A DNA stretch of 47,344 bases from a virus (IMGVR_UViG_3300037589_000201:1-47344), one strand, 5' to 3'; shown: positions 220 to 44,471, counted from the first letter of the stretch. A program made the numbers and translations. The notes: generated from the letters alone by a model not told the origin.

Positions 220-2722
220 ACCCGAAGGTCCTCACCTGGAGGACAGCTGGGACGACCAAGTTCGCCTTGAGATGGAGATGCTGGAGCGTGGCCGGGAGCT
301 GATGTCCATCCGCATCGAGAAGGCCCGTACCAAGAAGGACATGACCCGCCTTCGCCCGGTGCGCTCCCTCATCACCGAGTTCCTGCCACCGGTCATCGAG
401 AGCCTGGAGGGCTGGATGTCCTCCGTGGTCAGCTCGAAGGGAGGGCCGAAGCCCATCGCCCACAAGTACCTCACCCAGCTACCCACAGGCACATCCTCGC
501 TGCTCGCCCTGAGGACGGTCTTCAGGTGCATCAGCATCGAGAAGCGGGAGATCATCCCCCTGGCCTACGAGATCGGAAGCTGGGTGGAGAACGAGGCCCG
601 CATGCTTGCCTGGGAGGATGAAGACCCTGAGGGCTGGGACGGCCTCCGGAAGTTCTACCAGCAGCGTGGAGCCAATGCGGCCCACCTGCGAAGGGCTACC
701 TCGGCGGTATTCAACAAGCACATCCGGAAGCGCATCGGTTGGGGGGAGTGGGGACAGGAGGCTCGCCGCAGGGTGGGCCTTCAGCTGTTGGACAACGTGA
801 TCCAAGGGACCCGCAGGTTCCACATCGCATCCGACATGTCCCTGGCGAAGGCGAGAAGCTCGAAGCGGGACCCCAGGGCCTGGCCTCTGGTGCTCCAACC
901 CGATCAGGGGATGATGGATTGGCTCGCCGGGGCACTCGATGATGAGATGCTCCACATGCCTGTCTTCATGCCAACCCTCATCAAGCCTAAGGGATGGGAT
1001 GGCCCCAGGGATGGTGGCTACTGGACACCGTTCGTCAGCACACCATTCCTCATCCGCTTCAAGGCCTCCCACGAGACCCAGCGGCAGCGGGCCATTGATG
1101 AGTACGACGCCTTGGACATGCCCGAGGTCTACTCCGCAATCAACCACGTCCAGGACACCTCATGGCGCATCAACCGTGGGGTGTTCGAGACTGTTCGCCA
1201 CATGTGGGACAAGGACCTGGCCCTCGGAGGTCTTCCCCGGAAAGAGGAGCTTCCCGTGCCGCCAAGGCCCGAGAATTGGGAGGAGGACCCTGAAGGCTAC
1301 AAGAGGTGGAGAGGCAAGGCTGGGGACATCAACACCGCCAACGCCAAGGCGGTCTCCAAGATGCTTGGTGTGGACCGGACCATCGGCCAGACAGGGCAGG
1401 CTCGGAGGTTCCTGGACTGCGAGGAGTTCTTCTTCCCCCAGATGCTGGACTTCCGTGGGCGGATGTATCCGATACCCTCAGACCTGTCCCCTCAAGGGAA
1501 CGACCTGCACCGTGGCATCCTGGAGTTCGCCGAAGGGAAGCCTGTAGGGGAGGACGGCGGAAGCTGGCTAGGGGTCCAGGTGGCCAACACCCATGGGGTG
1601 GACAAGGTGTCCCTCCAAGAACGTGTTGACTGGGCCTTCGAGCGGCGGGACCTTTGGCGGGCAATCGCAGAGGACCCCCTGGAGTATCGCCAGTGGGTTG
1701 AGGCTGATGACCCATTCCAAGCCCTAGCCGCCATCAAGGACCTGGACGGCTACATCCGGGAGGGTTCCTCCTATGTCTCCCACGCACCTATCCGGGTGGA
1801 CGGGACATGTAACGGCATCCAACACCTTTCGGCCCTCATACGGGACGAGGAGGGTGGGTCCTCGGTGAACCTTTTGGAGGCCGACAGCCCTCGGGACATC
1901 TACCAGGAGGTGGCGGACACCCTGACTGAAATCCTGGAGGTCGAGCACAAGGACGGCAACGAGCTGGCAAGCGCATGGCTGGACGCCTTCGGGGGACATG
2001 CCCCCAGGTCAGTCACAAAGCGGCCAGTGATGATCCTACCATACGGCGGTACCCGCATGGCCTACATGCAGTACACCCACGAGTGGCTGGATGAGTTCGA
2101 TCCTGTTGGCCTCAGCATCTCTCGGGAGATACGGGGAAAGGCTGTTGGGTTCTTGGCGTCCCGCATGTGGGGTGCTGTCAGCGCCAGGTTGCAGAAGGCA
2201 CAGGAGGTCATGAAGTGGCTTCAGGATTGCTCCAAGGTGGCGTCCGCTTCAGGGCTTCCCCTGTACTGGACAACACCGGCTGGGTTCGTCGTCAGGCACT
2301 TCTATGGGGAGATAGTCTCTTCCAGGGTGGACGTGAAGTTGGACGGCCAGAGGGTTAACCTGCGGGTGAACAACGTGCAACCAACACTGGACGCAAAGGC
2401 GCAGGCTACAGGTATCGCACCAAACTTCATCCACTCCCTCGACGCCTCGGCCATGATGTCCTGCATCAACCTGTGCAAGGCTGAGGGCATCAACTCCCTC
2501 ACAACCATCCACGACAGCTACGGGACCCACGCATCGGACATGTGGAAGCTCTACTCCTGCATACGGGAGGGTTTCATCGAGACCTACCGTGGTGACCCCC
2601 TCGCTGACTTCCTTTCAGGGTGTCAGAGGATAACACCAAACGCTGGTGCGTGGCCGCAAATGCCGAAACGCGGAACGCTGAACATCGAGGCTGTCCGCTT
2701 CTCCGACTACTTCTTTTCCTGA
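200..2722 (+). CDS. T7-like single-subunit DNA-directed RNA polymerase (gp1-like)
   Basis: Motifs DFRGRMY, DGTCNGIQHLSA, RSVTKRPVMILPYG, APNFIHSLDA, IHDSYGTH and C-terminal DYFFS; ATG at 200 preferred over the TTG at 74. Confidence 0.98.
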   Translation: MQSALLKPEGPHLEDSWDDQVRLEMEMLERGRELMSIRIEKARTKKDMTRLRPVRSLITEFLPPVIESLEGWMSSVVSSKGGPKPIAHKYLTQLPTGTSSLLALRTVFRCISIEKREIIPLAYEIGSWVENEARMLAWEDEDPEGWDGLRKFYQQRGANAAHLRRATSAVFNKHIRKRIGWGEWGQEARRRVGLQLLDNVIQGTRRFHIASDMSLAKARSSKRDPRAWPLVLQPDQGMMDWLAGALDDEMLHMPVFMPTLIKPKGWDGPRDGGYWTPFVSTPFLIRFKASHETQRQRAIDEYDALDMPEVYSAINHVQDTSWRINRGVFETVRHMWDKDLALGGLPRKEELPVPPRPENWEEDPEGYKRWRGKAGDINTANAKAVSKMLGVDRTIGQTGQARRFLDCEEFFFPQMLDFRGRMYPIPSDLSPQGNDLHRGILEFAEGKPVGEDGGSWLGVQVANTHGVDKVSLQERVDWAFERRDLWRAIAEDPLEYRQWVEADDPFQALAAIKDLDGYIREGSSYVSHAPIRVDGTCNGIQHLSALIRDEEGGSSVNLLEADSPRDIYQEVADTLTEILEVEHKDGNELASAWLDAFGGHAPRSVTKRPVMILPYGGTRMAYMQYTHEWLDEFDPVGLSISREIRGKAVGFLASRMWGAVSARLQKAQEVMKWLQDCSKVASASGLPLYWTTPAGFVVRHFYGEIVSSRVDVKLDGQRVNLRVNNVQPTLDAKAQATGIAPNFIHSLDASAMMSCINLCKAEGINSLTTIHDSYGTHASDMWKLYSCIREGFIETYRGDPLADFLSGCQRITPNAGAWPQMPKRGTLNIEAVRFSDYFFS

Positions 2723-2740
2723 CTATCTCACATTACACAC
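2722..2740 (+). promoter_or_regulatory. Dispersed 19-bp motif copy
   Basis: ACTATCTCACATTACACAC at the RNAP stop codon. Confidence 0.6.
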
Positions 2741-2778
2741 AGTTATCCACCGTTCTGAATAACACGGAGTTTTCGCAA

Positions 2779-3096
2779 ATGGCTAAGCCTGCACCATTCA
2801 AATCCCTCTGGGCTATCATCTTCACTACATGGCCCGTGGAGATCGCCAAGTTCTATGGAGGAAGCCTGGAGAACGCCCACACCTCTGCCGGGGAGGCGGC
2901 GTTCTTAAAGATCATGGCCTCGGGCCTCGCACTCGTACTGGGGTTGCTGGGAGTTAGCTTTATCTCCGCAACGGGTACGGCTGGCGTACTTGTCGTTGGG
3001 GTCATCATCACCGTCTTCGACCTGATCCGCCTCTGGGGCTACGTACTCCTCCGTATGGAAGCTGCTGGAGACGAGGAGGGCCAGGACCGTGGCTAA
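2779..3096 (+). CDS. Small membrane protein
   Basis: GGAG RBS before ATG 2779; two hydrophobic stretches. Confidence 0.7.
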   Translation: MAKPAPFKSLWAIIFTTWPVEIAKFYGGSLENAHTSAGEAAFLKIMASGLALVLGLLGVSFISATGTAGVLVVGVIITVFDLIRLWGYVLLRMEAAGDEEGQDRG

Positions 3097-3397
3097 TTCG
3101 CTCTCCACCCGTATCGACCGGGACGTACTGAACTCCTTGCCCAGGGACCGCATTGCCGGGATGACCCAGGCGATCTTGGACCCGATCTCCTCCGAGAAGG
3201 GTGAGGAGCTTCTGGCGGCATCGGCCACCCTCTTCGCTGTGATGGTGGAGCGGTACGAAAGCTCCCCGCAGGACCTCTACCTCTACGGCAAGCGCGTCCT
3301 GGGGGCGGAGGAGGACTTCCACAAGAAGGGCAACGACCAGCTGGAGGCCCTGAGGGACTTCGCGGCGCTTCGTGTCCGTGGCGAACCCATCATCTGA
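3089..3397 (+). CDS. Hypothetical phage protein
   Basis: 102-aa ORF, GTG start, phage-like codon use, coupled to the upstream gene. Confidence 0.75.
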   Translation: MANSLSTRIDRDVLNSLPRDRIAGMTQAILDPISSEKGEELLAASATLFAVMVERYESSPQDLYLYGKRVLGAEEDFHKKGNDQLEALRDFAALRVRGEPII

Positions 3398-3415
3398 CCA
3401 TACCACATCCCACAC
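3397..3415 (+). promoter_or_regulatory. Dispersed 19-bp motif copy
   Basis: ACCATACCACATCCCACAC between a stop codon and the AAGGAG RBS of SSB. Confidence 0.75.
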
Positions 3416-3429
3416 AAAGGAGCCTACCA

Positions 3430-5139: not shown

Positions 5140-5669
5140 TGACGGCCCTGAGGTACAAGGCCCGCAAAGAGACCAACGCCATCCTCCTCCACGACAGCCA
5201 TACGGACCCTGATGTGGTCACCGGCCAGGAGGTGCAGAGGTGGTCGGCCTTGGCGGAAGAAGGGGGCCTCAAGATGGGCCTCCTTGGGGTGGGATACCAC
5301 TTCATCATCGAGCGGACTGGCGAGGTCGTGGAGACACGCCGCCGCCACCTGGTCGGCACCCACACTCCAGGACACAACATGGACTCCATCGGCATCTGCC
5401 TGGTGGGTGGCCGTGAGAAGTCCACCGGGGCCGAGGGCATCGACAACTTCACGGTCCCCCAGCGAAGAGCACTCCTACAGCTCCTGGCCTCCCTCAGGGA
5501 GGAGTATGGAGACATCCCCGTAAAGGGCCACTCAGAGGTTCAGCGGTACCGGAACAGGTGCCTGGCTGATTGCCCGGCCCTGGACATGGAGGAGCTTCGC
5601 CAGGACCTCCGTCTATTCGAACACAATGGGAAGATACTCTATGACGAAGAGAACACTTACGCCCGCTGA
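5139..5669 (+). CDS. N-acetylmuramoyl-L-alanine amidase (T7 lysozyme gp3.5-like)
   Basis: ILLHDS, GVGYHFII, GTHTPGHNMDSIGICLVGG, NFT, GH...CP; located between endonuclease and primase. Confidence 0.93.
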   Translation: MTALRYKARKETNAILLHDSHTDPDVVTGQEVQRWSALAEEGGLKMGLLGVGYHFIIERTGEVVETRRRHLVGTHTPGHNMDSIGICLVGGREKSTGAEGIDNFTVPQRRALLQLLASLREEYGDIPVKGHSEVQRYRNRCLADCPALDMEELRQDLRLFEHNGKILYDEENTYAR

Positions 5670-5895
5670 AGAGAAGGGCCTCTCCGAGCAGCAGGCCCGC
5701 GTCTATGATGTCCTGAAGCAGGGACGTGGACTGTCCAACCTGCTGGCACTCACCAACCACGGCATCGGGTCTCTCTCCTCTCGGGTGGCAGAGCTTCGGA
5801 AGAAGTTCGACCTCCACATCACCTCCGAGCAGCGGACGGACACCACCGGGAAGAAGTATGCAGTCTACAGCATACCGCAGGAGGAGGGTCGATGA
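5641..5895 (+). CDS. Small winged helix-turn-helix DNA-binding protein
   Basis: QQARVYDVLKQG...LSSRVAELRKK...YAVY pattern typical of small phage wHTH proteins. Confidence 0.7.
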   Translation: MTKRTLTPAEEKGLSEQQARVYDVLKQGRGLSNLLALTNHGIGSLSSRVAELRKKFDLHITSEQRTDTTGKKYAVYSIPQEEGR

Positions 5896-7790: not shown

Positions 7791-8102
7791 GTGAGCGAAA
7801 TGAAGGACGCGCTGGCGCGGATGCGAGAGGAGCTTACGGCCCTCAACAAGGCAGTGACTGAGCAGGGCATACGCCTCACCTTGGCCCAGGCCTGGATCGA
7901 CCTCTACAAGTACGGCTACGACATGTTCCGTGCCTATGGCGTCGATTTCAAGCTCCTCCGGGAGTACAACGAGGACAGCACTCTCGATGAGGCGGCGGAG
8001 CTTCCACTCAGCCAGGCCCGCCTGAAGATCGTCCAGTACATCGGGAGGGTTCGCAGTGGCATCAACGCGGCAGTCCGCCGAAAGCAGTTCAGGCTGCACT
8101 GA
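7791..8102 (+). CDS. Hypothetical protein
   Basis: GTG start after AGGA RBS, directly after the helicase stop. Confidence 0.7.
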   Translation: MSEMKDALARMREELTALNKAVTEQGIRLTLAQAWIDLYKYGYDMFRAYGVDFKLLREYNEDSTLDEAAELPLSQARLKIVQYIGRVRSGINAAVRRKQFRLH

Positions 8103-8376
8103 CTCTACCACACTACGCACGTTCTACCGGTCGAGGACCCTTCGAGAGAAGGTCGTCTTCGAGGTGGACACAAAGGGAGACGTTACCAGGGTCCTCTCGG
8201 TAACGGCGGTCCAAGTTGGTCCGACAGTGATCGGGGACTGGGCGGAGGGGGACAGTCCCTACCCGGCCCTGGACGAGGCCCCAAGGCGTGAACGCAACGA
8301 GGTCGGCAAGTGGTCCCGGCGCATTAAGGCATCGAAAAGGTTTGGACTTGATGGAGACGAAGACAACGGCGACTGA
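8056..8376 (+). CDS. Hypothetical protein, start uncertain
   Basis: Open frame filling the gap before PolA; no clear RBS/start. Confidence 0.4.
   Translation: MASTRQSAESSSGCTDSTTLRTFYRSRTLREKVVFEVDTKGDVTRVLSVTAVQVGPTVIGDWAEGDSPYPALDEAPRRERNEVGKWSRRIKASKRFGLDGDEDNGD
8102..8120 (+). promoter_or_regulatory. Dispersed 19-bp motif copy
   Basis: ACTCTACCACACTACGCAC at a stop codon. Confidence 0.65.
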
Positions 8377-10711
8377 AAAGGTGAAGTTCGACTGGTACTG
8401 GCCAGACGGCTCAAAGGCCACCAGAGGCCCCCGGCTTGCATTCGACATTGAGACCAATGGGCTGCTGCCTGAGGTGGACTCTATGTGGTCCCTATGCATC
8501 CGGGACATAGACACCAAGGAGGAGTGGAGCTGCTGCCCAGCGGACGGCTTCCCCAGCCTGGAGGAGGGCCTTGAGCGCCTGTCTAAGGCCTCCCTGATTG
8601 TCGGCCACAACATCATCTCCTACGACATTCCGGTCATCAAGCACCTCTACCCAGGGTGGGACTTTGAAGGCATTGCGCGGGATACCCTGCTGCTTGCCAA
8701 AATGATCTGGCCCATGGAGGCCCTCAAGGACCTCGACGCCCCTAGGCTATACCGGAAAGAGCTGGAGAATGCGGGTGTACAGATCAGGCCGGGGCAGATA
8801 CCCGGTCGCCTTATGGGTGCCCAGAAGCTGGAGGCCTGGGGCTACCGGATGAAGCTACAGAAGGGCGAGTACGTCGAGGATGTGCTGACCCATGGCAAGC
8901 TCCTGGCGGCGGACCCAGCCTATGAGGTTCCTGAGGAGCTTCGCCCGCTGATCGTCCCCGAGGCCGAGACTTACGGCAGGACAAAGACCCGGCTGATGCC
9001 GTGGAAGGCCTGGAACCTCCCCATGCAGCGGTACTGCGAGGTGGACGTAGATGTCACGGTTCGCCTGTTCACGCTGATCGAGGAGCATCTCACGGGGACC
9101 GCAAAGGCGGCTAAGGGCGTCGGCTGGTCCCCACAATGCGTCGTCCTGGAGCATGAGACCTGGGAGCACTGCCTCAAGCAGGAGGCCCGTGGCTATGGCT
9201 TTGACATGGACGGAGCGGTCGAACTCGCCGCCACCCTGAAGAACCGCCAGGCGGAGCTGCACAAGGCGCTTCGTGAGGTCTTCGGCTCCTGGTGGGCACC
9301 CGTCACAGGGGTGGACCCCCGCAAGGGTTCTCTCCCGGCGAGGGATCGGTCGGAGAAGAGCAAGCTCCCACCAATCACCTCCAAGCGTGTCTCGGAGAAG
9401 ACCGGGAAAGAGCTGAAGCCCTACGTGGGTCCTCCGCTCATCCACTACACCACGGACTCCCCGTTCGTCTCCTTCCGGCGCGTTCGGTTCAACCCGAAGT
9501 CGAGGGCACACCTGGGGAAGCGGCTGCAAGAGCTGTATGGGTGGAAGCCTACGGAGTTTGGCGGGAAGAACGGCGACCAGGCCAAGGTGGACGAGACCAC
9601 CATCAAGGAGATCGCGGACAGCATCATCCCCGAGGACCTGAAGCAGACCATCCTGGAGGAGTTCGTCATTTCGAAGACCCTCGGCCAGCTGGCTGACGGC
9701 AACAAGGCCTGGATCAACCTGAGGGCTGACGATGGGCGGCTGCACGGACGGGTTGACCCCCTCGGCACCATCTCCCACCGGGGTGCCCACAAGGACCCGA
9801 ACCTGGGGCAGGTGCCCGCCGTCTCCGTTGACGAGAAGAAGGACGAGAACGGCAAGGTCATCTCCAAGGAGATCGTCTGGGGATGGGAGGGAGGCTTCGG
9901 TGCCGAGTGTCGCGGCCTGTTTGAGCCTGGAGTTCCTGGGTGGAAGCAGACGGGTTCTGACGCGGCTGGCTTGGAGCTTCGCCTCCTGGGGCACTACCTG
10001 TGGCCCTATGATGGCGGCGAGTTCGCCCGAAGGGTCTCAACACCTGGTCTCGACATCCATGCGGAGAACGCGAAGATCACCGGCCTCTCTCGGGCAGAGA
10101 CCAAGACGGTCACCTACGCATTCCTATATGGGGCGGGTGCCCTGAAGCTGGGCATCGGGGTTGGCATCAAGGACGAGGAGATCGAGGAGCTGGCCAACAG
10201 CGGCGCGGCGCGATCCTACCTCCACTGGCTAAAGACCCAGACCAAGCTCCCGGCACCGGACCAGAAGACCCTGGCACTCACCATGCGCGGCCAGGAGGTC
10301 AAGAAGAAGTTCCTTTCGGGCATTACCGGCCTGAAGGAACTCCAGGAGGACCTCAAGACTGAGGCCAAGCAGTACGGCTTCATCAAGGGCCTGGATGGTC
10401 GGAAGCTCTACATCCGCAAGGCCCATGCGGTCCTGAACCAAGCACTCCAGGGTGGTGGCGCTATTGTCTGCAAGATGTGGATGATCGGCAGTGCCAAGGA
10501 GCTTGAAGCCCGGAACATCAAGTGGGGCGAGGACTACGCCCAGATGGCCTGGGTACATGACGAGTGTCAGTACGAGCATAAGCCGGAACTGACGGACGTT
10601 TTCCCGGAGGTCTCAAGGCTGGCCATGAAGGCTGTGGCCCGTGAGCTGGCTTTCCGGGGAGAACTGGACACCGACACCAAGAGCGGAAGCAACTGGAGAG
10701 AGTGTCACTGA
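8351..10711 (+). CDS. Family A DNA polymerase with 3'-5' exonuclease (gp5-like)
   Basis: FDIETNGL, VGHNIISYD, YCEVDV, HKDPNLGQVP, DAAGLELR, RAETKTVTYAFLYGAG, NQALQGGGA, WVHDE, C-terminal NWRECH. Confidence 0.97.
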   Translation: METKTTATEKVKFDWYWPDGSKATRGPRLAFDIETNGLLPEVDSMWSLCIRDIDTKEEWSCCPADGFPSLEEGLERLSKASLIVGHNIISYDIPVIKHLYPGWDFEGIARDTLLLAKMIWPMEALKDLDAPRLYRKELENAGVQIRPGQIPGRLMGAQKLEAWGYRMKLQKGEYVEDVLTHGKLLAADPAYEVPEELRPLIVPEAETYGRTKTRLMPWKAWNLPMQRYCEVDVDVTVRLFTLIEEHLTGTAKAAKGVGWSPQCVVLEHETWEHCLKQEARGYGFDMDGAVELAATLKNRQAELHKALREVFGSWWAPVTGVDPRKGSLPARDRSEKSKLPPITSKRVSEKTGKELKPYVGPPLIHYTTDSPFVSFRRVRFNPKSRAHLGKRLQELYGWKPTEFGGKNGDQAKVDETTIKEIADSIIPEDLKQTILEEFVISKTLGQLADGNKAWINLRADDGRLHGRVDPLGTISHRGAHKDPNLGQVPAVSVDEKKDENGKVISKEIVWGWEGGFGAECRGLFEPGVPGWKQTGSDAAGLELRLLGHYLWPYDGGEFARRVSTPGLDIHAENAKITGLSRAETKTVTYAFLYGAGALKLGIGVGIKDEEIEELANSGAARSYLHWLKTQTKLPAPDQKTLALTMRGQEVKKKFLSGITGLKELQEDLKTEAKQYGFIKGLDGRKLYIRKAHAVLNQALQGGGAIVCKMWMIGSAKELEARNIKWGEDYAQMAWVHDECQYEHKPELTDVFPEVSRLAMKAVARELAFRGELDTDTKSGSNWRECH

Positions 10712-10729
10712 CCCTACCACAAAACACAC
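10711..10729 (+). promoter_or_regulatory. Dispersed 19-bp motif copy
   Basis: ACCCTACCACAAAACACAC between the PolA stop and an AAGGAG RBS. Confidence 0.8.
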
Positions 10730-18302: not shown

Positions 18303-18321
18303 ACGCTACCACATGACACAC
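18303..18321 (+). promoter_or_regulatory. Dispersed 19-bp motif copy
   Basis: ACGCTACCACATGACACAC just after the capsid stop. Confidence 0.75.
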
Positions 18322-30579: not shown

Positions 30580-30598
30580 ACTCTACCACATGGCACAC
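30580..30598 (+). promoter_or_regulatory. Dispersed 19-bp motif copy
   Basis: ACTCTACCACATGGCACAC overlapping the small terminase ATG. Confidence 0.7.
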
Positions 30599-32743: not shown

Positions 32744-34614
32744 CTGAGCGCCCTATCCTCATTGACCCCCTGAAGTCCCCAAAGGCTTCCCCGCGTCTGG
32801 ACCCTACCACATCACACACGAAGCCCCTCCACTGGGCGAAGGTCGTTTATGGGGACCCCCTGAAGGACGACTTCCGGGTCATGCTGACGTTGATCTGGCG
32901 GCACCTGGGTCTTCCCGACCCGACGCCCCTCCAGTTGGACATCGCGTGGTACATTCAGCACCATGGGTGGAATGGCGAGGTGGACCGCCTCATCATCATG
33001 GGCTTCCGTGGTGTTGCCAAGTCGTGGATCACCGGGGCCTACGCCCTGTGGATCATCTACCGGAACCCGCAGCTGAAGGTCGGCGTCTTCTCAGGCTCTG
33101 GCCGTCGAGCCGTCAACTTCGTGACTTGGTGTCTTCTCCTCATCCGGGAGGTTCCAGAGTTCAAGCACCTGATGCCGAGGCCCCACCAGAGGTCCTCCTC
33201 CCAGAACTTCGACGTTGGGCCTGCCACCCCTGACCAGACCCCGAGCATCTTTGCGGCGGGTATCACCGGCCAGGTGGTTGGCTTCCGAGCCGATGTCATC
33301 GTAGGGGATGACGTGGAGACCAACAAGAACTCCATGACGCCCGACATGCGCGAGAAGGTTTCGGATGGTGTCCGAGAGTTCGACGCGATCATCAAGCCGG
33401 GTGGGCAGATCATCTTCCTGGGAACGCCTCAGACCGAGGCCTCGATCTACAACTCCCTGGCCAAGAAGGGCTACGCGGTTGTCATCTGGCCCGCCAGGTA
33501 CCCTGGGAGGAAGCTGAGGCGCATCTACGGCAACCGGCTGGCACCCTTCATCACCCACAAGGTGGAGAGGGACCCGACGCTGGTGGGCCACTCGACCGAG
33601 CCTGGCCGCTTCTCGGATGACGACCTCGCCGCCCGTGAGAGATCATGGGGTAAGGCAGGCTTCGCCCTCCAGTACATGCTGGACACCAGCCTGTCCGATG
33701 TGGACCGCTATCCGCTCAAGCTGCGTGACCTGATCGTCATGCCGCTGGACATCCGCACTGGGCCGGACATGGTTGCCTGGGGCACCGGGGACCACCTGAA
33801 GGTCCGCGAGGTGGACGCCGTGTGCTTCGACGGGGATGGTCTCTATGGCCCATCCAACGAGTGCAAGACGTTCACGAAGTACCAGCAGGTGGTTGGCTTC
33901 ATCGACCCATCTGGTAAGGGTGCTGACGAGGCTTCGCTCACTATCGTGGCCCTGCTCCACTCCACCGTGTTCGTCCTCTACCAGGGCGGCTGGCAGGATG
34001 GTTACGCCGATGACACCCTTAAGGACATGGCAAAGGCCTGCGTGAAGTATGGCGTCCGCAAGCTCCGCATCGAGGAGGACTTCGGGCAGGGCATGTACGC
34101 CCAGCTCCTGAAGCCGGTCCTGAAGAAGGCCTGGGATGCAGCCAACCGGAAGCGCAGCCGGGACGACCAGGGAGCCACCTCCGTGGAGACCGAACGGGCC
34201 ACCAAGGTCCAGAAGGAGCTTCGCATCCTGGAGGTCCTGGAGCCTGCCTTTTCGTCGCACCGGGTCGTGATCGGTCTGGATGTTCTTCTCGATGACGCCT
34301 CCCAGGTTGAGCGGCGAGACGGAAGCGATCTGGCTGACCGCTACAGCCTCATGTACCAGATCACACGGCTGGCCAGGGAGAGAGACTGCCTGACGCACGA
34401 TGACCGCGTAGAGGGCCTCTCTGGCGCTGTGAGAATGTTCCTGGACCACCTGGGGCTTTCCCCTCAGGATCAGGCCGACGAGGAGGCTGAGAGACGGCTT
34501 GAGGAGTGGCTTGAGGAGATGGAACGCCAGGCTGATGACATGCGGGGCGAAAGCCGCCAGCGTGGCCCGAAGCTCCGGGGGAAACTCCGGTCAGGATCGG
34601 CCAGAAGACGGTAA
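32740..34614 (+). CDS. Terminase large subunit (gp19-like)
   Basis: GFRGVAKSWIT, GITGQVVGFRADVIVGDDVE, LGTPQ, FALQYMLD, IDPSGKGADE, HDDR. Confidence 0.97.
   Translation: MTERPILIDPLKSPKASPRLDPTTSHTKPLHWAKVVYGDPLKDDFRVMLTLIWRHLGLPDPTPLQLDIAWYIQHHGWNGEVDRLIIMGFRGVAKSWITGAYALWIIYRNPQLKVGVFSGSGRRAVNFVTWCLLLIREVPEFKHLMPRPHQRSSSQNFDVGPATPDQTPSIFAAGITGQVVGFRADVIVGDDVETNKNSMTPDMREKVSDGVREFDAIIKPGGQIIFLGTPQTEASIYNSLAKKGYAVVIWPARYPGRKLRRIYGNRLAPFITHKVERDPTLVGHSTEPGRFSDDDLAARERSWGKAGFALQYMLDTSLSDVDRYPLKLRDLIVMPLDIRTGPDMVAWGTGDHLKVREVDAVCFDGDGLYGPSNECKTFTKYQQVVGFIDPSGKGADEASLTIVALLHSTVFVLYQGGWQDGYADDTLKDMAKACVKYGVRKLRIEEDFGQGMYAQLLKPVLKKAWDAANRKRSRDDQGATSVETERATKVQKELRILEVLEPAFSSHRVVIGLDVLLDDASQVERRDGSDLADRYSLMYQITRLARERDCLTHDDRVEGLSGAVRMFLDHLGLSPQDQADEEAERRLEEWLEEMERQADDMRGESRQRGPKLRGKLRSGSARRR
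32801..32819 (+). promoter_or_regulatory. Dispersed 19-bp motif copy inside the terminase 5' end
   Basis: ACCCTACCACATCACACAC. Confidence 0.75.
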
Positions 34615-35408
34615 TCGTTACGGATACGGAATGATCGGAAGTTATCCACCGTATATATACTCCCGGTGTCCATTAGGTATATACATAGAGATAAGGAGAG
34701 GGGGAGACCATCATCCCCTCTCCACTTGGTGTGTACCTTTCTGTATCTTCCCTTAGTGCTTAAAGTGACTGCTTTAGGTAGTACCCTCCAGGTATAGAGG
34801 GGAAGAGGAGTAGACCTCCCCTCTCCCTTAAGTCTATGCTGAAAGTGACTGCCTAATGATCCTCATCCTGCTCGTGTTCTGGCTCCGATCCCGGAAGGCT
34901 CCCAGGGGTGGCTTACGTGAAGTCTCCATTAAACGTGACGACTCGACGCTTTCCCCCCTCTACCCCCCTCAAGTTCCCCAAATGATCGCCTTCTGTTCCC
35001 CTACTGTTCCCATTAGGTGAGGTGGGGGGGCAGGGTATGGAATGCCACAAGGCTGGCCTAACCCATTGAAAACATTAGGCTTCGTAGTTGATTAGGTATC
35101 AACCGCATGTGCCACAAGACCGCCAAGAGTGTTGCATAAAAGACACACCCTCTCTATATCCTATCAGTATGCTTTTCCAGTCACATTGCGCATGGAAGTT
35201 GGCACGGGTCTTGCTACGCGCCTAGGCGTGTTCCTCTAGCCCCCTTGAAGTCATTCCATTAGGTTCCCCTAAAGTATGCTTACCAGGTAGACACCCTAGG
35301 CGGGCATGAGGTGGTAATGGGGTGGGCATGAGGTGGGGCCTAGCTGGTACCTATCAGGGGGCCATGGGGGTTGTATGGGATACTCTAGGTTGTACCAATA
35401 TGCACACA

Positions 35409-35427
35409 ATGTGGAGTGTGAGAGGGT
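35409..35427 (-). promoter_or_regulatory. Dispersed motif copy, reverse orientation
   Basis: Reverse complement ACCCTCTCACACTCCACAT. Confidence 0.65.
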
Positions 35428-35518: not shown

Positions 35519-35537
35519 CTGTGGTATGTGGTAGGAT
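35519..35537 (-). promoter_or_regulatory. Dispersed motif copy, reverse orientation
   Basis: Reverse complement ATCCTACCACATACCACAG. Confidence 0.6.
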
Positions 35538-35620: not shown

Positions 35621-35639
35621 ACCCTATCACATTCCACAC
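35621..35639 (+). promoter_or_regulatory. Dispersed 19-bp motif copy
   Basis: ACCCTATCACATTCCACAC, identical to the copy at 36249. Confidence 0.75.
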
Positions 35640-36248: not shown

Positions 36249-36267
36249 ACCCTATCACATTCCACAC
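36249..36267 (+). promoter_or_regulatory. Dispersed 19-bp motif copy
   Basis: ACCCTATCACATTCCACAC, intergenic. Confidence 0.75.
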
Positions 36268-36291: not shown

Positions 36292-36594
36292 ATGACCATA
36301 AAGTATCGCATCACGTCCAACCACGCGGCCACGCTTGCCAACATCTGCATGGTGGCTGGGGAGAAGTTTGAGGCCAACGCTAAGGCTCTCGATGAGCACT
36401 CCAAGTCGGACCCTGTAGAGGGCCAGATGATTACACCGGGAGCAGCTGCGAGGTTGCGTGACCAGTTCAGCTATCAGGCGGCGCAGGCGCAGCACCTTGT
36501 GCAGGTCTTTCAGGCCTTCGATGGGTCTGGGGTCTTGGAGGTCGATGAGGGGATGATCGAAGACATCGCCGCGCTTGGGGGCAATGGGTCTTGA
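36292..36594 (+). CDS. Early hypothetical protein
   Basis: GAGGAG RBS, 100 aa. Confidence 0.75.
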   Translation: MTIKYRITSNHAATLANICMVAGEKFEANAKALDEHSKSDPVEGQMITPGAAARLRDQFSYQAAQAQHLVQVFQAFDGSGVLEVDEGMIEDIAALGGNGS

Positions 36595-36637
36595 CAAGCT
36601 AACACCACCACATTACACACTATACCACGAAGCACAC
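36591..36637 (+). promoter_or_regulatory. TTGACA -35 element followed by two tandem motif copies
   Basis: TTGACA at 36591; ACACCACCACATTACACAC at 36602 and ACTATACCACGAAGCACAC at 36619. Confidence 0.65.
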
Positions 36638-36652
36638 AAAGGAGCTTTGACC

Positions 36653-37150
36653 ATGACACACATCAACACCATCAACTCCCAGCCCAACGCCTATGCTGGC
36701 GGGGTATGCGGCCACTCGACACCGGCAAGGTGGAATGACTGGGCGATCTTCTGCGTGGGGAACGATCCGTATCGAGAAGCGGGGTTCACAACGTGGGCGA
36801 ACGGATGCGGCCTCAAGTTCAAATCGCTGATTGGCAGCTACAAGGGGCAACAGGAGCGGAGCTTCTTGGTCTCGATGGCCGACTACGAGCGGTGCATCAA
36901 GAACTCTGGATGGATCAAGCAGGAAGAGAGCGTCTTGCTCCTGAGGCCGCGCCGCAAGGACGATGGCACCTTGCTCAAGTGCTACGATGCACCCATCGAC
37001 GCCTACCTTGTCTACGAGGGGGACCGCTCCGAGTGGATCGGCCTTTGGCAGGAGACCCATGAGGCCAACGCGAAGGCGGGCGAGGGGTGGACATACGATC
37101 CCCAGTTCGGGACTTGGTTCAACGTCTACCAGCCCCGCGCCGTGAACTAA
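36653..37150 (+). CDS. Early hypothetical protein
   Basis: AAGGAG RBS; GSYKGQQERSF, QEESVL, GWTYDP motifs. Confidence 0.8.
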   Translation: MTHINTINSQPNAYAGGVCGHSTPARWNDWAIFCVGNDPYREAGFTTWANGCGLKFKSLIGSYKGQQERSFLVSMADYERCIKNSGWIKQEESVLLLRPRRKDDGTLLKCYDAPIDAYLVYEGDRSEWIGLWQETHEANAKAGEGWTYDPQFGTWFNVYQPRAVN

Positions 37151-37168
37151 CCCTACCACACGACACAC
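37150..37168 (+). promoter_or_regulatory. Dispersed 19-bp motif copy
   Basis: ACCCTACCACACGACACAC between a stop codon and AAGGAGG. Confidence 0.8.
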
Positions 37169-37184: not shown

Positions 37185-38087
37185 ATGGCCTATAGTCACG
37201 ACATCGTGGCCCACAACTGGGCACATCAGACCGGCAAGAAGTGTCGGGGGTTCAACATGTTCTACGAAGGGGAGACCATCTACTCCTATGGGTACCACTT
37301 CCCCATCGCGAGGTTCTTCACGGCACCGAACGGGGAGCGCGTGGTGCTGGTCAACTCGGACCGATACTCGGTGAGCACCTCCAAGCACCAGACCATCGTG
37401 CGGAGAGCTTTAGGCTACGAGCGGGACGATTTGGTCTACGTGCCGATGCTCGGGCGAGGCAACTATCGGGACTGGATCACAAAGTTCGACAAGGACATCG
37501 AGACCATTGCTGGCCGATGGAAGCGGGCCAGGACCAACAAGGACATCTTTGCGGCTGCGATGCGCAACAATGTCGAGACCATCAACCGCATCATAGACCT
37601 GTGGCAGCTTGATGAGCCACACCGGGCAGTCCCTGAGGACATCAATGCATGGGTCGATGAGGCCCTGAAGAGACACGCGGAGGAGGCCGCAGCTAAGGAC
37701 AAGGCCGACCGGGAGAAGATCAAGAAGTGGCTTAATGGGGAGGACGTTACTCCGCCCCATACGCGGACACCCTATGTGCGGGTGATGCCGTCAGCACGGG
37801 TGGCCGAATACGAGGTGCAGACCTCATGGGGCGTCAAGGTCCCTCTGGCCGATGCCATGAAGCTCTACCGGATGGCTGGCCTTGTGCGGATCATCGGGAA
37901 GACTTGGAGACCCTCCAAGCGGCACCAGATCGGCGGATGGCCGGTTGACCACATCGCAGCCGATGGGACACTCAAGGCCGGGTGCCATGTGATCCCCTTC
38001 AAGGTCCAGCAAGAGGCGGCGCGGCTGGCCGGACTGGATGCTACCACATTCCACATCAACCATACGAACCAGATGGAGGCCGCGTGA
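37185..38087 (+). CDS. Early hypothetical phage protein
   Basis: AAGGAGG RBS; IYSYGYHFPIA, YSVSTSKHQ, AGCHVI. Confidence 0.85.
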   Translation: MAYSHDIVAHNWAHQTGKKCRGFNMFYEGETIYSYGYHFPIARFFTAPNGERVVLVNSDRYSVSTSKHQTIVRRALGYERDDLVYVPMLGRGNYRDWITKFDKDIETIAGRWKRARTNKDIFAAAMRNNVETINRIIDLWQLDEPHRAVPEDINAWVDEALKRHAEEAAAKDKADREKIKKWLNGEDVTPPHTRTPYVRVMPSARVAEYEVQTSWGVKVPLADAMKLYRMAGLVRIIGKTWRPSKRHQIGGWPVDHIAADGTLKAGCHVIPFKVQQEAARLAGLDATTFHINHTNQMEAA

Positions 38088-38569: not shown

Positions 38570-38588
38570 ACCCTACCACAAGGCACAC
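38570..38588 (+). promoter_or_regulatory. Dispersed 19-bp motif copy
   Basis: ACCCTACCACAAGGCACAC, intergenic. Confidence 0.8.
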
Positions 38589-38928: not shown

Positions 38929-39114
38929 ATGACCCACCAGCACCCACCGGAATACTACGCGGAGGCCGCACAGCTGGCCGAAGCATCACACCTCTGGAAC
39001 ATCGCAGAGGTCAACTGGAGGCTGGCCGCAGAGGCTACCTCACGCACACCCAACGGTGAGACTGCTACAGTCCACCATCTCACACCACACACAAAGGAGA
39101 ATACCCATGTTTGA
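38929..39114 (+). CDS. Small helical protein (ANR-like pattern)
   Basis: YAEAAQLAEASHLWNIAEVNWRLAA; GAGG RBS. Confidence 0.5.
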   Translation: MTHQHPPEYYAEAAQLAEASHLWNIAEVNWRLAAEATSRTPNGETATVHHLTPHTKENTHV

Positions 39115-39435: not shown

Positions 39436-39765
39436 ATGATGCCACAGCAGCTTTCACGCCCACAGGCCCCCAAGAAGGGGTCCTTCTGGGCCGACGCGGC
39501 GAGCACGGTGGGATACGTCCCGCTGGACCCTGGGGACCACTCCAAGGGCTACATCGGGTCAGTCCGCAGGCTCGGCAAGCAATACAAGTGGACGGCCTGG
39601 ACCCGCGTGGTGAAGCCGAACACGACGATGAAGGCGGAGCCGGTCTCGGGGTCGGCCACCAACAGCCGCCTGTCACGCAAGCTTTCCCAGGCTCTATGGG
39701 CCTTGCGGAAGAACTTCGATGGGTCGTTCAAGACGGGGGTTGACACCGCAAAGGACGATACCTAA
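39436..39765 (+). CDS. Early hypothetical basic protein
   Basis: AGGAG RBS, 109 aa. Confidence 0.7.
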   Translation: MMPQQLSRPQAPKKGSFWADAASTVGYVPLDPGDHSKGYIGSVRRLGKQYKWTAWTRVVKPNTTMKAEPVSGSATNSRLSRKLSQALWALRKNFDGSFKTGVDTAKDDT

Positions 39766-39783
39766 CTATATCACAAATCACAC
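39740..39783 (+). promoter_or_regulatory. TTGACA -35 element with a motif copy over the expected -10/+1
   Basis: TTGACA at 39740, TAACTA at 17-bp spacing, ACTATATCACAAATCACAC at 39765. Confidence 0.55.
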
Positions 39784-39864
39784 ATTGTGTGGTATGGCGT
39801 AGAGATTACCCTTCGTCTCTGCCCCGTAGTTTCACCCGAAGGGCCAGCACAAAAGGAACGAAAC

Positions 39865-40341
39865 ATGAGCAAGAAGCACATCGCAATTCACAAGCATGGC
39901 GAAGACGGCGGGTTCCACATTGACGCCGAGACCGGCCTGATCACCACCCCCGCTGAAGAGCGTCCGGTGTGGTCCGAAGGCTTCGCTCGGGCGGACATGG
40001 CGGAGTACACACAGTGGTACAAGTCACGCCTCGGCGACAACGCACCGGAGCACCTCACGGCACCCGGCCTCCTCGAAGTCGGCATCCTTCAGTGGGACGG
40101 CGTGGACGCTGAAGGGGATCAGGTCGAGATCGACGCGAATGCGGAGACCCGTACCTCCCTCATGGCAGGCCTCCTCGGCATTTCCACCGATGCAGACGAC
40201 TGGGAGCAGAAGGTCGATGGCCAGGTGGCGGGCGCTCTGGTGGACCACGACTACTCCACCCACCCCTCCACGGAGGCCTCCCTCGCCGAGGTCGAAGGGA
40301 AGGGCTTCGAGGATGTGGAGAAGAAGGCCGCAGAAGGTTGA
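39865..40341 (+). CDS. Early acidic hypothetical protein
   Basis: AAGGA RBS, ATG 39865. Confidence 0.75.
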   Translation: MSKKHIAIHKHGEDGGFHIDAETGLITTPAEERPVWSEGFARADMAEYTQWYKSRLGDNAPEHLTAPGLLEVGILQWDGVDAEGDQVEIDANAETRTSLMAGLLGISTDADDWEQKVDGQVAGALVDHDYSTHPSTEASLAEVEGKGFEDVEKKAAEG

Positions 40342-40621: not shown

Positions 40622-40990
40622 ATGGTGAAAGCGCACCTTACCCACCCACTCAAAGGGTACTTCGAGGCCAACCGGACGATCATGGCTGAGAGAGAAGAGA
40701 TACCATCGACAATCATCAACACCTTCCTTGGGGTCGTCATCTGGGGCGAGCATCAGGGAAGTAAGGGGGAGCCGCTCACACTGAAGGAGCTGTCCGAACG
40801 GGTGGGCCTCCCCTACACCACAGTGTCGCGGCACCTGCGATACCTCGGAGACTACGAGCGGACGGGCGTACCGGGCTTGGGCCTGGTCAGGACCGACATC
40901 TACCCGCTCAACCGCCGCCAGAAGGTGGCCACATTGACAGCCAAGGGAAAGGCCCTGGCGTCACGTCTGGAACACGCACTAGGAGGATGA
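40622..40990 (+). CDS. MarR-like winged-helix transcriptional regulator (candidate repressor)
   Basis: LTLKELSERVGLPYTTVSRHLRYL...GLV...NRRQKVATLTAKG; directly upstream of integrase. Confidence 0.88.
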   Translation: MVKAHLTHPLKGYFEANRTIMAEREEIPSTIINTFLGVVIWGEHQGSKGEPLTLKELSERVGLPYTTVSRHLRYLGDYERTGVPGLGLVRTDIYPLNRRQKVATLTAKGKALASRLEHALGG

Positions 40991-40994: not shown

Positions 40995-42191
40995 TTGCCC
41001 ATACGTCAGCGATCCAACGGCTTCCAGGTGGAGGTCAACGATGCCTCCGCCCTTCCGAAGTTCCGCCGGATACGCACCCAGTGTGAAGGCACCAGGGAAG
41101 ACGCTGTGGCCCTTGAGGCGTCCATACGGGAGTGTCTGAAGACCTACAAGAAGTGGCCCCTCGCAGAAGGGGACCAGCCGGTTCAAGACCCTAGGGCAGG
41201 CCGCAAGGTCGGAACCCTGAGGATAGCCGCGCAGTTGGCACTGGACACCCACTGGGTGGGCATGGCCTACGAGGTTACCACCAAGAAGGTCGTCTGGCCC
41301 ATCGTCCGGTTCTTTGAGGACGTGCGGGGGGTCTACGACATTGACGACATCACATCGGAGGACCTGGATGCTTTCGTGGCCGACTGCCGGTCTCGGGGGA
41401 ACACCTCGTCCACCATCAACAAGAACCTCTCGAACCTCTCGGTGATCAACACCGTGGCCCTGGAGCGGAAGCCCCCACTGACAGCCACGAAGCTGCCCAT
41501 CAAGCGCCAGAGGGTCTCCCCCACGGAGAAGTGGTGGTTGAGGCCTGAGGACATGGAGCGGGCCACCAGGTGGTTGCGTGAGGAGCGGGGGGACCCGATC
41601 TTCGCGGACTTCATCGAGATCATCGTCAAGCAGGGCCTCCGGGTAGAGGAAGCCTTGAGGCTGGAGCCTCGGCACTTCACCGGACTGGACACGGAGGAGC
41701 CGTGGCTGCATGTGCCAGGCACCAAGACCAAACAGTCGGGAGACAGTATCCCCGTCTACCCGTGGGCCGTGGAGGTACTGAGGCGGAGCCTACAGCGGGC
41801 CAAGGTGCAGCGCCTGGAGAGGCTCTACCCCTACACCACCCGTCAAGCGTCAGACCGGTGGAATGAGGTGAGGGCCTTCTTGGGCGTCTCGCACATCAAC
41901 ACTGCCACATTACGCGCTTTGCGCCGGACCTTCGCGTACTATGCAAACACGGTCTACAAGATGCCCACTCGTACCCTCCAGCGGGTGTTGCGGCACAACA
42001 ACATCACCACCACCGAGGGATACCTCCAGCTGCTGGGGACGGACGAGGTGGCACGGTCTAGGGAATACTTCACGGTGGAGGCACCGAGGAGAGGCGGCAA
42101 GTCGGCCTTGGCGGAGACCATCGAGGCTTACCGACAAAGCGGAGCGACACCTGAAGAGGTCGCCAGGTTCGTAAAGGAGATCATGCGATGA
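40995..42191 (+). CDS. int: Tyrosine integrase
   Basis: STIN core-binding motif; GLRVEEAL (R), GTKT (K), RALRRT, VLRH, TTEGY (Y); TTG start after AGGAGG. Confidence 0.93.
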   Translation: MPIRQRSNGFQVEVNDASALPKFRRIRTQCEGTREDAVALEASIRECLKTYKKWPLAEGDQPVQDPRAGRKVGTLRIAAQLALDTHWVGMAYEVTTKKVVWPIVRFFEDVRGVYDIDDITSEDLDAFVADCRSRGNTSSTINKNLSNLSVINTVALERKPPLTATKLPIKRQRVSPTEKWWLRPEDMERATRWLREERGDPIFADFIEIIVKQGLRVEEALRLEPRHFTGLDTEEPWLHVPGTKTKQSGDSIPVYPWAVEVLRRSLQRAKVQRLERLYPYTTRQASDRWNEVRAFLGVSHINTATLRALRRTFAYYANTVYKMPTRTLQRVLRHNNITTTEGYLQLLGTDEVARSREYFTVEAPRRGGKSALAETIEAYRQSGATPEEVARFVKEIMR

Positions 42192-42702: not shown

Positions 42703-42721
42703 ACTATACCACATTCCACAC
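42703..42721 (+). promoter_or_regulatory. Dispersed 19-bp motif copy
   Basis: ACTATACCACATTCCACAC, intergenic. Confidence 0.75.
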
Positions 42722-42741
42722 AATGCCAACCACAAGGAGAC

Positions 42742-43343
<602 letters not shown>

Positions 43344-43344
<1 letters not shown>

Positions 43345-43969: not shown

Positions 43970-44241
43970 TGTTCTCAGGACACCTAAGCCTACTCGGGGC
44001 TATCCTCCAGGCGGCAGCATCGGAGCGAGTTGCAAGGGCATGTGCGCCTATGGGACACACACCAGACCCAGCAGGGGACAAGTTCTTCACGGCCTTGTTC
44101 ACGGCGATACTGATCATCATGCTGGTCTGCGGGACTTACACCCTATACCTCACCGCAGGTCTATGGGTCCTCACGAAGGTCATCGCAGGCATCGGCCTGT
44201 TCGCCACCCTGGTCTGGGTGATCTACGGCCAGCTGGACTGA
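43969..44241 (+). CDS. Small membrane protein
   Basis: TGATG coupling; two TM helices. Confidence 0.7.
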   Translation: MFSGHLSLLGAILQAAASERVARACAPMGHTPDPAGDKFFTALFTAILIIMLVCGTYTLYLTAGLWVLTKVIAGIGLFATLVWVIYGQLD

Positions 44242-44278
44242 CCTTGCGCCAGACAGCGGGTGACACTACCTTGGAGGG

Positions 44279-44404
44279 ATGCGCGAACATATCCAATACT
44301 ACCTCCAAGCGGCCTGGGGCATCATCCTGGGCGTCCTCCAAATACTGGCATTCCTGCTGGTGCTTGTGACGGTCGGACGCCTACTACTGGGGATGCCTCT
44401 GTGA
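44279..44404 (+). CDS. 41-aa membrane peptide (not in ORF track)
   Basis: GGAGG RBS; MREHIQYYLQAAWGIILGVLQILAFLLVLVTVGRLLLGMPL. Confidence 0.55.
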   Translation: MREHIQYYLQAAWGIILGVLQILAFLLVLVTVGRLLLGMPL

Positions 44405-44428
44405 CATTCCCGTGTAATGTGGCACCTT

Positions 44429-44441
44429 TAAGTGCTTGATA
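44429..44441 (-). promoter_or_regulatory. IHF consensus site in the att arm
   Basis: Reverse complement TATCAAGCACTTA matches WATCAANNNNTTR exactly, 30 bp from the att core. Confidence 0.65.
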
Positions 44442-44471
44442 ACGCTACACTCTGACACACCAGGGGGTAGC

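Follow-up and report, generated by a model that had tools for sequence, protein, structure and literature searches.

A dispersed asymmetric motif as a probable operator set for a MarR-like repressor in a temperate T7-like prophage

Dispersed operators and temperate T7-like phages

Cluster A mycobacteriophages are described, in the passages available on them, as carrying more than 20 asymmetric repressor sites, which occupy promoter regions and short intergenic gaps and are oriented with transcription (L5 gp71 and the TipsytheTRex repressor). The consensus of these stoperators varies between phages, and the L5 repressor is presented there as a monomer of 183 residues with two DNA-binding domains, a 13-mer site, and a demonstrated orientation-dependent block (passages of PMC9283540 and PMC5712189).

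Repression in temperate T7-like phages has been treated more indirectly. The LUZ100 paper, citing Boeckman et al., proposes that MarR represses by way of sites on either side of the promoter that precedes the polymerase gene, and the passages and supplements of it that were available name no operator, palindrome or inverted repeat (PMC10134795). For T7-like cyanophages, integration without lysogeny is reported, with no repressor recognized in the excerpted text (PMC8776855).

The DNA analyzed here, referred to as the window, is a viral stretch of 47,344 nucleotides (IMGVR_UViG_3300037589_000201). It fits the temperate Autographiviridae in its T7-like polymerase, gene order, MarR protein, tyrosine integrase and tRNA attachment site; the left attachment site of the prophage lies outside the window. 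LUZ100, RHEph01, HTVC019P-type pelagiphages and P-SSP7 share with it the set and order of genes (MarR, integrase, tRNA-Leu, polymerase) and have a homologous MarR and a phage promoter similar to that of the window. The genes relevant to this account are as follows.

200..2722, plus: T7-like single-subunit RNA polymerase (phrog_414, E 6e-211; start at 200 placed from relatives)
5641..5895, plus: second winged-helix protein (HTH_39), a rival binder (PF14090, E 7e-06; 10/10 clade genomes)
39865..40341, plus: acidic protein heading the lysogeny module (10/10 clade genomes; no Pfam family)
40622..40990, plus: MarR-like winged-helix regulator, the likely binder (phrog_9665, E 5e-17)
40995..42191, plus: tyrosine integrase (phrog_1, E 9e-27)
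42836..42920, minus: phage-borne tRNA-Leu(CAA)
44472..44526, plus: 3′ part of a tRNA-Leu, likely attR and prophage end (84% like the phage tRNA)

Like L5, the window holds more than 20 asymmetric, mostly intergenic sites oriented with transcription. It differs from L5 in the candidate binder (a 122-residue MarR-fold protein), in the length of the site (19 bases), in having the phage's own polymerase, and in that its stoperator step is putative.

The motif and its distribution

An earlier note on this DNA had described a 19-bp motif, TACCACA-N3-CACAC, and the motif proves genuine: a matrix built from 19 plus-strand sites picked out 20 plus and 2 minus sites above the cut-off of 14 bits, against 0 in each of ten order-3 Markov simulations. 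Sites of interest are given below, those without further remark on evidence having been located with the matrix.

163..181, plus: site (17.2 bits with the motif matrix)
2722..2740, plus: copy that begins on the stop codon of the polymerase gene and abuts a predicted phage promoter (same slot in relatives and LUZ100)
3397..3415, plus: copy 5′ of the ssDNA-binding protein gene
8102..8120, plus: copy at the junction of the primase region and DNA polymerase
10711..10729, plus: copy on the DNA polymerase stop codon
17257..17275, plus: copy 5′ of the major capsid gene
18303..18321, plus: copy 3′ of the major capsid gene, with a hairpin immediately downstream
25325..25343, plus: copy between internal virion protein genes
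30580..30598, plus: copy
32801..32819, plus: copy at the 5′ end of the terminase large subunit frame
35389..35427, both strands: inverted pair (18+3+18) made of a good minus copy (22.5 bits) and, facing it, a weak plus one (3.3 bits)
35519..35537, minus: copy (20.1 bits); the plus strand reads as an extended −10 (by eye)
35621..35639, plus: copy at the start of the early region
36249..36267, plus: copy
36591..36637, plus: TTGACA, then a tandem pair of copies (36602, 36619) covering the spacer and −10 position of what may be a host promoter
37150..37168, plus: copy
38038..38056, plus: copy inside an early gene, at its 3′ end
38570..38588, plus: copy
39074..39092, plus: copy
39744..39805, both strands: TTGACA-17-TAACTA, which may be a host promoter and is overlapped by two copies, one plus (39765) and one inverted (ending at 39805); it heads the acidic-protein, MarR and integrase genes
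42703..42721, plus: copy downstream of the integrase (30.3 bits)
44410..44460, both strands: two degenerate, divergent motif-like stretches beside the attachment site (0.0 and 3.2 bits, not above background)

Nineteen of the 21 plus-strand copies listed in the earlier note were recovered, with leave-one-out scores of 15.3–29.5 bits, but those at 28809 (−4.5 bits) and 44442 (3.2 bits) do not stand out from background. Its minus-strand copies at 35409–35427 and 35519–35537 likewise stand, and the one at 44410–44428 (0.0 bits) does not stand out either. Positions 12–14, which it had called free, are nearly so, yet T occupies position 12 in 10/19 copies; positions 21–23 after these 19 copies show a weak A-T-G bias.

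Altogether the window has 22 plus and 3 minus sites, of which 22/25 are on the coding strand. Only 4/22 plus sites lie inside called genes, and weaker copies occur within genes at 21589 and 41899. The first base of the motif is the last base of a stop codon in 8/22 plus sites. Motif sites are anchored on upstream stop codons (27/128 at offset 0 or +1), and their distance to start codons is not fixed.

The motif is absent from the flank after 44524, as had been claimed; this absence is uninformative, since just 1.4 copies would be expected there (probability of none 0.25). Host density could be judged in relatives (designated here by G or L numbers), where exact matches to the own motif fell in the prophage or prophage contigs in 12/12 cases for G003, 2/2 for G002 and 10/10 for G001. 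The motif is thus confined to prophage DNA in the whole host genomes of these relatives. An exact-pattern scan of viral contigs returned 118 stretches and gave no close relative, because each of the 80 listed had a single match. An Rfam search had no match, and in four DNA sequencing runs aligned to 30000–47344 the phage part was without variant letters and without joints.

The phage promoter, the candidate binder and the proposed silencing

The earlier note had contrasted the form of the motif with that of T7-type promoters. A separate promoter-like element fills the promoter role. Elements of the T7/Syn5 type were found in the window at two places only.

2740..2759, plus: predicted phage RNA polymerase promoter, copy 1, for middle and late genes (13 bases identical to 34640–34652; like mapped LUZ100 promoters)
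34639..34658, plus: predicted phage promoter, copy 2, 3′ of the terminase gene, with no motif copy upstream

Such an element follows both the polymerase and the terminase gene in 6/9 relatives examined. It resembles seven mapped LUZ100 promoters (phi1–4 and phi6–8; alignment by eye), whereas the motif does not match the mapped promoters of related phages.

The 40622 protein has 122 residues and a single winged-helix domain, with its best matches among MarR-type proteins, including the MarR genes of LUZ100, pelagiphages and P-SSP7. Its predicted model (pLDDT 84) aligns with the MarR–DNA structure 5h3r over 101 residues (Z 11.2, rmsd 5.0), a score tied with other winged-helix proteins, and its sequence matches to solved MarR proteins are weak (E 8e-4). 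The MarR alignment yielded only three viral records, none of them new to this comparison.

Across nine genomes, the distance between motifs followed that between MarR proteins once core distance had been removed (partial r 0.62, p 0.004; recognition helix 0.67, p 0.004; Mantel p values uncorrected for 18 comparisons, with the G005 sites hand-picked). The same test gave −0.33 for the polymerase, −0.12 for its specificity loop (a segment aligned with a two-column offset) and −0.25 for the HTH_39 protein (helix −0.04). With G001 left out, the integrase (0.57), portal (0.55) and exonuclease (0.49) also reached p < 0.03. G001 nests with the window in the core tree, a quick tree, yet its recognition helix is altered and its motif has diverged the most. 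In the wider set the association is weak, at 6/23 MarR-positive against 1/21 MarR-negative loci (Fisher p 0.097, rank test p 0.015). G412 has 10 good motif copies but a MarR slot of only 87 bases with no MarR match, in a record that is 67% complete, and L208 has a palindrome after its polymerase gene with no MarR in the 4.9 kb upstream. Recent loss could explain such sites, since phage D29 is described as keeping its stoperators after repressor loss (a passage of PMC5712189).

LUZ100 was found to have, besides its phage promoters, a second motif, a 20-base palindrome. Copies of it mark the polymerase stop and the junction of primase and DNA polymerase, precede both the SSB and terminase genes, follow the capsid gene and stand close to the integrase, and it also lies inside the 17-base spacer between the −35 and −10 of the mapped host promoters P1 and P2. 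The same pattern is seen in RHEph01, with 14 palindrome sites found, in YIMV22061 and, weakly, in CRP-361. It was not found in ProddE, which has a CI-type repressor; HTVC019P and S-SRP02, in which MarR is present, showed just C/A-rich leader-like repeats and no clear palindrome; and Lo5R7ANS yielded a promoter and no recurrent operator above a score of 40. Equivalence between the window motif and the LUZ100/RHEph01 palindrome rests on position and not on sequence, because window sites score negatively with the LUZ100/RHEph01 matrix (best mean −16 bits).

Operators of the MarR family are by definition palindromic and about 16–20 bases long, and for a MarR homodimer an asymmetric site is unusual. 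The window consensus departs from this rule, although dyads are present in G004, which has a complete dyad behind the polymerase gene, and in G409, LUZ100 and RHEph01, and inverted 39-base pairs recur. The LUZ100 and RHEph01 sites are palindromic, in contrast to those of the window clade, which are asymmetric and one-way; compared with the flanking sites proposed in the LUZ100 paper, those of the window are genome-wide. Before the window's own MarR gene the best motif score is 3.8 bits, with no clear site, and the pair at 39765 heads the gene group; motif copies precede MarR in G002, G003, G411, G004 and G005, mostly as judged by eye.

It is likely that the 40622 protein, the binder named in the earlier note, recognizes the motif. 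The best explanation, with slightly less assurance, is that the motif probably constitutes a genome-wide operator set for this MarR-like repressor, silencing a T7-type prophage. Both points are supported by the separate promoter, the co-variation of motif and MarR, and the LUZ100 motif within host-promoter spacers.

The repressor would bind about 22 copies and keep the T7-type genome of the lysogen silent. In the early and lysogeny regions, copies that cover promoters of the host polymerase would prevent initiation there, and the copy abutting 2740 would guard the sole predicted phage promoter serving middle and late genes. The remaining junction copies would serve as back-up binding sites or, more doubtfully, as roadblocks to read-through by host polymerase. 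A consensus scan of 34600–44600 placed no sigma-70 promoter at any motif. Near the sites, 8/11 TTGAC(A/T) boxes are nested within the motif itself, and the TTGACA boxes at 36591 and 39744, which the motif overlaps, have poor −10 elements. L5-type systems place an operator across their early lytic promoter, an arrangement seen for the equivalent motif of LUZ100.

The operator appears to be derived from a palindrome that turned asymmetric, with its C/A-rich strand on the mRNA, where it possibly keeps ribosome-binding sites open. In keeping with the latter, flipping the motif lowered predicted accessibility of the ribosome-binding site from 0.54 to 0.46 (44 sites, p 3e-5), and selection for open mRNA leaders can explain the one-way orientation.

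Three other proteins were considered as binders and set aside. The protein at 39865 is acidic, without a family, and present in phages lacking both MarR and motif (partial r 0.43, p 0.09); the 39107 protein occurs in only 5/10 motif-bearing genomes; and the Gp5.7-like protein at 11137 shows no co-variation with the motif.

Other readings of the motif

An unlikely alternative is that the HTH_39 protein at 5641 is the binder, either alone or as a Cro-like partner that shares sites with MarR in lytic growth. It is encoded in 10/10 motif-bearing genomes, the MarR-less G412 included, its helix and the motif core show the same grouping by clade, and a small monomer would suit an asymmetric, one-way site. 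However, it does not co-vary with the motif in the partial test above, and its homologue in G001 is ordinary even though the motif there has changed. G008 and G010 have the homologue, no MarR, and no junction motif above shuffles, and G006, G094, L204, L262 and L284 show only early-region or Shine-Dalgarno repeats. Likewise, a palindrome follows the polymerase gene in 1/15 loci with a 5641-type protein versus 3/18 without.

Less probable still is a different use of the sites by MarR, to activate, to recruit phage polymerase, or in an architectural or recombination role. Within the clade the predicted phage promoter keeps an almost constant distance from the motif, beginning at motif position 19–20, and LUZ100, RHEph01 and (weakly) the window have motif-like sites close to the attachment region. 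This spacing is nonetheless about 30 bases longer in LUZ100 and RHEph01, the second promoter copy at 34639 has no motif site, and sites inside a 17-base sigma-70 spacer fit repression.

The motif is probably not a phage RNA polymerase promoter, and its use as a second promoter class, covering −17 to +1, has a very small probability. T7 and Syn5 promoters are like it in length, single orientation and placement before middle and late genes; it spans 18–19 bases, position 17 being a pyrimidine and position 18 a purine, and is found ahead of the genes for SSB, DNA polymerase and capsid. Furthermore, the KP34 polymerase is reported to use two unrelated promoters (PMC6834552). Unlike those promoters, the motif has no A/T-rich start and end, and it fails to track the polymerase specificity loop: G002 and G003 have a common motif and MarR helix but a different loop and promoter-like element. 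In Syn5, 37 kb is described as transcribed from one of two promoters (a passage of PMC3950665), a two-copy layout matched by the 2740/34639 element and not by the motif. The motif is itself abutted by that separate element, its inverted pairs face each other three bases apart, and its sites are anchored on stop codons and stand at no fixed distance from starts. In G001 a Shine-Dalgarno sequence lies within the motif, with ATG 3–8 bases later in 10/20 plus sites, and the positionally equivalent LUZ100 motif falls at no annotated phage start.

Least probable of all is action as RNA (an unstructured C/A-rich leader or a signal for processing) or as an extended −10 host promoter read antisense: the coding-strand bias, the open ribosome-binding sites of the native orientation and a window reverse complement reading TGTGn-TAnnnT speak for it, but the phage specificity of the middle positions, the inverted pairs and the sites lying across promoter spacers indicate recognition of double-stranded DNA, and the antisense reading fits the window and not the relatives, with the TG and first T of the −10 not kept in G409, G410, G002, G003 and G411 and no conserved −35.

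The copies and their places, the two-copy promoter-like element and the fold of the 40622 protein are demonstrated here, and the analysis separates operator from promoter and yields a new predicted polymerase–promoter pair. As a tentative generalization, MarR-repressed temperate T7-like phages may silence their entire genome by means of dispersed operators, with the one-way site of this clade stopping host polymerase at gene ends. Equally speculative, as a joint proposal, is that such one-way sites are a stoperator system that arose independently of mycobacteriophages, and that immunity groups would be defined by one recognition-helix residue (Arg, Thr or Tyr) that dictates which base (C, G or A) stands at position 8. 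For the lysogeny of T7-like phages, the window and two cultured phages, LUZ100 and RHEph01, now each have a definite candidate operator; the question is therefore directly testable, and the motif provides a sequence marker for temperate potential among phages taken to be lytic.

Motif copies and their prophage setting

The window holds a T7-like prophage on a single contig and encodes RNA polymerase, SSB, primase/helicase, DNA polymerase, portal, capsid, tail, internal virion proteins, and terminase. Early genes come after terminase; beyond them lie a transcription regulator (40622) and an integrase (40995). Among named relatives, those closest in polymerase (47–53%) are from Rhizobiales genomes. 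The 3′ part of a tRNA-Leu at 44472–44526 is the likely right attachment site, the left one lying outside the window. Beside it, between two degenerate motif-like copies, 44430–44442 matches the IHF consensus. Other features of the prophage and its border are as follows.

3089–3397: unannotated protein of 102 residues, helical in appearance, encoded by one of the first genes downstream of the predicted phage promoter and kept across the clade as well as in many T7-like loci that are more distant
11137–11418: family profile matches a LUZ100 gene annotated as similar to T7 Gp5.7 (E 8e-12)
29283–29408: 63-base tandem repeat in the tail fibre gene, two copies 94% alike
36653–37150: early gene that matches S-adenosylmethionine lyase (PF23780, E 1e-06), likely an anti-restriction function
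39865–40341: acidic 158-residue protein without a family, heading the lysogeny module in 10/10 clade genomes and also found in MarR-less relatives, most divergent in the related genome G001; at a guess, a DNA mimic or antirepressor
42836–42920, minus strand: complete phage-borne tRNA-Leu(CAA), overlapping a called frame (42742–43344) whose family match is confined to residues 110–195 and whose true start is probably later than called; LUZ100 and YIMV22061 also have an antisense tRNA-Leu close to the integrase
44880–47087: KAP-family P-loop NTPase (E 6e-49) in lower-GC DNA just past the attachment site; it may be a defence gene belonging to an adjacent island

The 19-base motif (TACCACA-N3-CACAC) is real, phage-specific, and genome-wide. 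A matrix scan of the window gave 20 plus-strand and 2 minus-strand sites above 14 bits, versus none in 10 simulations, and leave-one-out site scores were 15–30 bits. Nineteen of the 21 plus-strand copies listed in the earlier note, and both of its full minus-strand copies, lie where it placed them; those at 28809, 44442, and 44410–44428 are indistinguishable from background. Its list also lacked two good copies, one at 163 and an inverted one at 39805. The flank past the prophage is only 2.8 kb, too short to judge absence of the motif from host DNA. The comparison of prophage with host chromosome, proposed earlier as a check, bore out phage specificity: when three whole host genomes were scanned with the motif of their own resident prophage, every match fell inside the prophage (12/12, 2/2, and 10/10), and the window-motif pattern had zero matches in five whole host genomes. 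Of 128 plus sites in the clade, 27 start on a stop codon or one base past it, and the distance from motif to next start codon varies widely.

A MarR-like candidate binder

Taken as a whole mechanism, the reading that the motif is the operator of a MarR-like repressor is fairly probable. The 40622 protein has matches among genes annotated as MarR in LUZ100, pelagiphages, and P-SSP7, and its model (pLDDT 84) has a MarR-type winged-helix fold, although the match to 5h3r (Z 11.2, rmsd 5.0, 101 residues) is tied with other winged-helix proteins. Motif variants are present in nine relatives. Among 9 genomes, with core-gene distance removed, motif distance tracks the MarR protein (r 0.62, p 0.004) and its recognition helix (r 0.67, p 0.004), these p values being uncorrected for 18 comparisons; it does not track the polymerase (−0.33), the specificity loop (−0.12, from a segment aligned with an offset), or the HTH_39 protein at 5641 (−0.25), a second winged-helix protein and rival binder. 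One relative (G412) was excluded for lack of MarR, and the sites of another (G005) were chosen by hand. With G001 excluded, MarR still gives 0.65, but integrase, portal, and exonuclease pass too. That genome has a rebuilt recognition helix and the most distant motif, despite a core tree (a quick tree) that groups it with the window and G409 (support 99). At one helix position, Arg accompanies C at motif position 8 in four genomes, Thr accompanies G in three, and Tyr mostly A in one, a pattern resting on few independent changes; G001 is an exception, having Arg there in its otherwise rebuilt helix, yet G or A at motif position 8.

As to the rival at 5641, relatives that bear HTH_39 without a MarR hit have no comparable junction motif. 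Junction motif scores are 20 in both G008 and G010 and 37–68 in five others of this kind (early-region or Shine-Dalgarno repeats); the nine MarR-positive genomes score 55–195 and shuffles 15–27. A longer cassette with a TCACAC word, in four early-region repeats, occurs in a prophage without a MarR hit (G006 35466–36660). Among 44 distinct loci, of 53 examined, a palindrome lies behind the polymerase stop in 6 of the 23 with MarR and in 1 of the other 21 (Fisher p 0.097, rank test p 0.015), and has no link to HTH_39.

Exceptions are L208, a T7-like locus that carries the palindrome without a MarR hit, and G412, which retains 10 motif copies with its MarR slot empty. The latter slot (L420:10302–10389) is down to 87 bases, the integrase frame behind it looks intact, and the gap looks like a clean deletion. 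According to PMC5712189, D29 retained its stoperators after repressor loss, which is, by analogy, a precedent for sites outlasting a repressor and not proof.

That MarR represses temperate T7-like phages from sites close to the polymerase promoter has already been proposed (PMC10134795, citing Boeckman et al.). No genome-wide operator set was found in the titles and abstract openings searched; subscription papers, above all Boeckman et al., may describe one.

A palindromic counterpart in cultured phages

Two motifs came out of an unbiased search across the LUZ100 junctions, the first being the mapped promoter (7/8 annotated) and the second a 20-base palindrome, located as follows.

At the polymerase stop
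Upstream of SSB
Between primase and DNA polymerase
After the capsid gene
Downstream of the integrase
Before terminase
In the −35/−10 spacer of P1 and P2, two mapped host promoters

The window motif occupies several of the same positions (2722, 3397, 8102, 18303, the start of terminase, and downstream of the integrase). RHEph01 and YIMV22061 have the same motif pair, as does CRP-361 weakly; ProddE, with a CI-type repressor, has no such palindromic motif, and HTVC019P, S-SRP02, and Lo5R7ANS, in which MarR is present, gave no clear recurrent palindrome. Window sites do not score against a matrix built from the LUZ100 and RHEph01 sites, so the link to the LUZ100-type palindrome is positional. Intermediates are seen as internal dyads in sites of G004 and G409, and in G004 the site behind polymerase forms a complete inverted pair of 39 bases, with the geometry of the window's pair at 35389–35427. 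The available text of the LUZ100 paper (PMC10134795) contains no mention of an operator, palindrome, or inverted repeat, in a search that also covered 10 supplementary files.

In three phages without a MarR hit (ProddE, at 8572–8608, G010, and L389), a terminator hairpin occurs soon after the polymerase gene; MarR-bearing phages have an operator-like site there, a difference noticed in these three phages only.

A separate predicted promoter and the proposed mechanism

The motif is probably not the phage RNA polymerase promoter. Another element (2740–2759) lies directly behind the copy at 2722, and its 13-base core recurs only at 34640, after terminase. The same two-copy layout, with a core specific to each genome, is found in 6 of 9 relatives, and G001, G004, and G412 yielded one copy only. 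Compared by eye, the 2740 element is similar to the phage promoters of LUZ100, for which cappable sequencing mapped the starts (PMC10134795). The two-promoter arrangement predicted for the window is also that of Syn5, in which one promoter serves 37 kb (PMC3950665). In G001, the motif contains the Shine-Dalgarno, with ATG 3–8 bases downstream in 10 of 20 plus sites, and a promoter spanning −17 to +1 would cut the Shine-Dalgarno off. Motif and predicted promoter are duplicated jointly, as one unit, at 3433–3546 of the relative G411. A promoter or motif goes unmentioned in the available part of a pelagiphage preprint (10.1101/410191).

Under MarR-like repression, a repressor made from the lysogeny genes would bind all motif copies. 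Early transcription would be stopped by the copies that overlie possible host promoters (36591, 39744, and the terminal region 35389–35639), a step for which LUZ100 gives the one firm footing, by analogy. In the window these possible promoters have poor −10 boxes, a consensus scan of 34600–44600 found no sigma-70 promoter at any motif, and, among 24 non-coding TTGAC(A/T) boxes from nine genomes, 8 of the 11 near sites are nested in the motif itself. Protection of the one promoter predicted to serve middle and late genes would fall to the copy adjoining 2740, and that of the polymerase gene to the copy at 163.

With the motif reversed at 44 sites, the predicted mRNA leader gains structure (−9.6 to −17.0 kcal/mol) and predicted RBS openness falls (0.54 to 0.46), an effect that is partly trivial since G/U-rich strands pair more. 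Selection on translation could thus fix the C/A-rich strand on the message, and one-way orientation alone does not imply a polar block.

The system is similar in layout to the cluster A stoperators (PMC9283540), but it is not a cluster A member: its candidate repressor is of another family, and an elongation block would be hypothetical here. Copies at middle and late junctions have no promoter beside them, and their simplest use would be as a putative roadblock to host polymerase.
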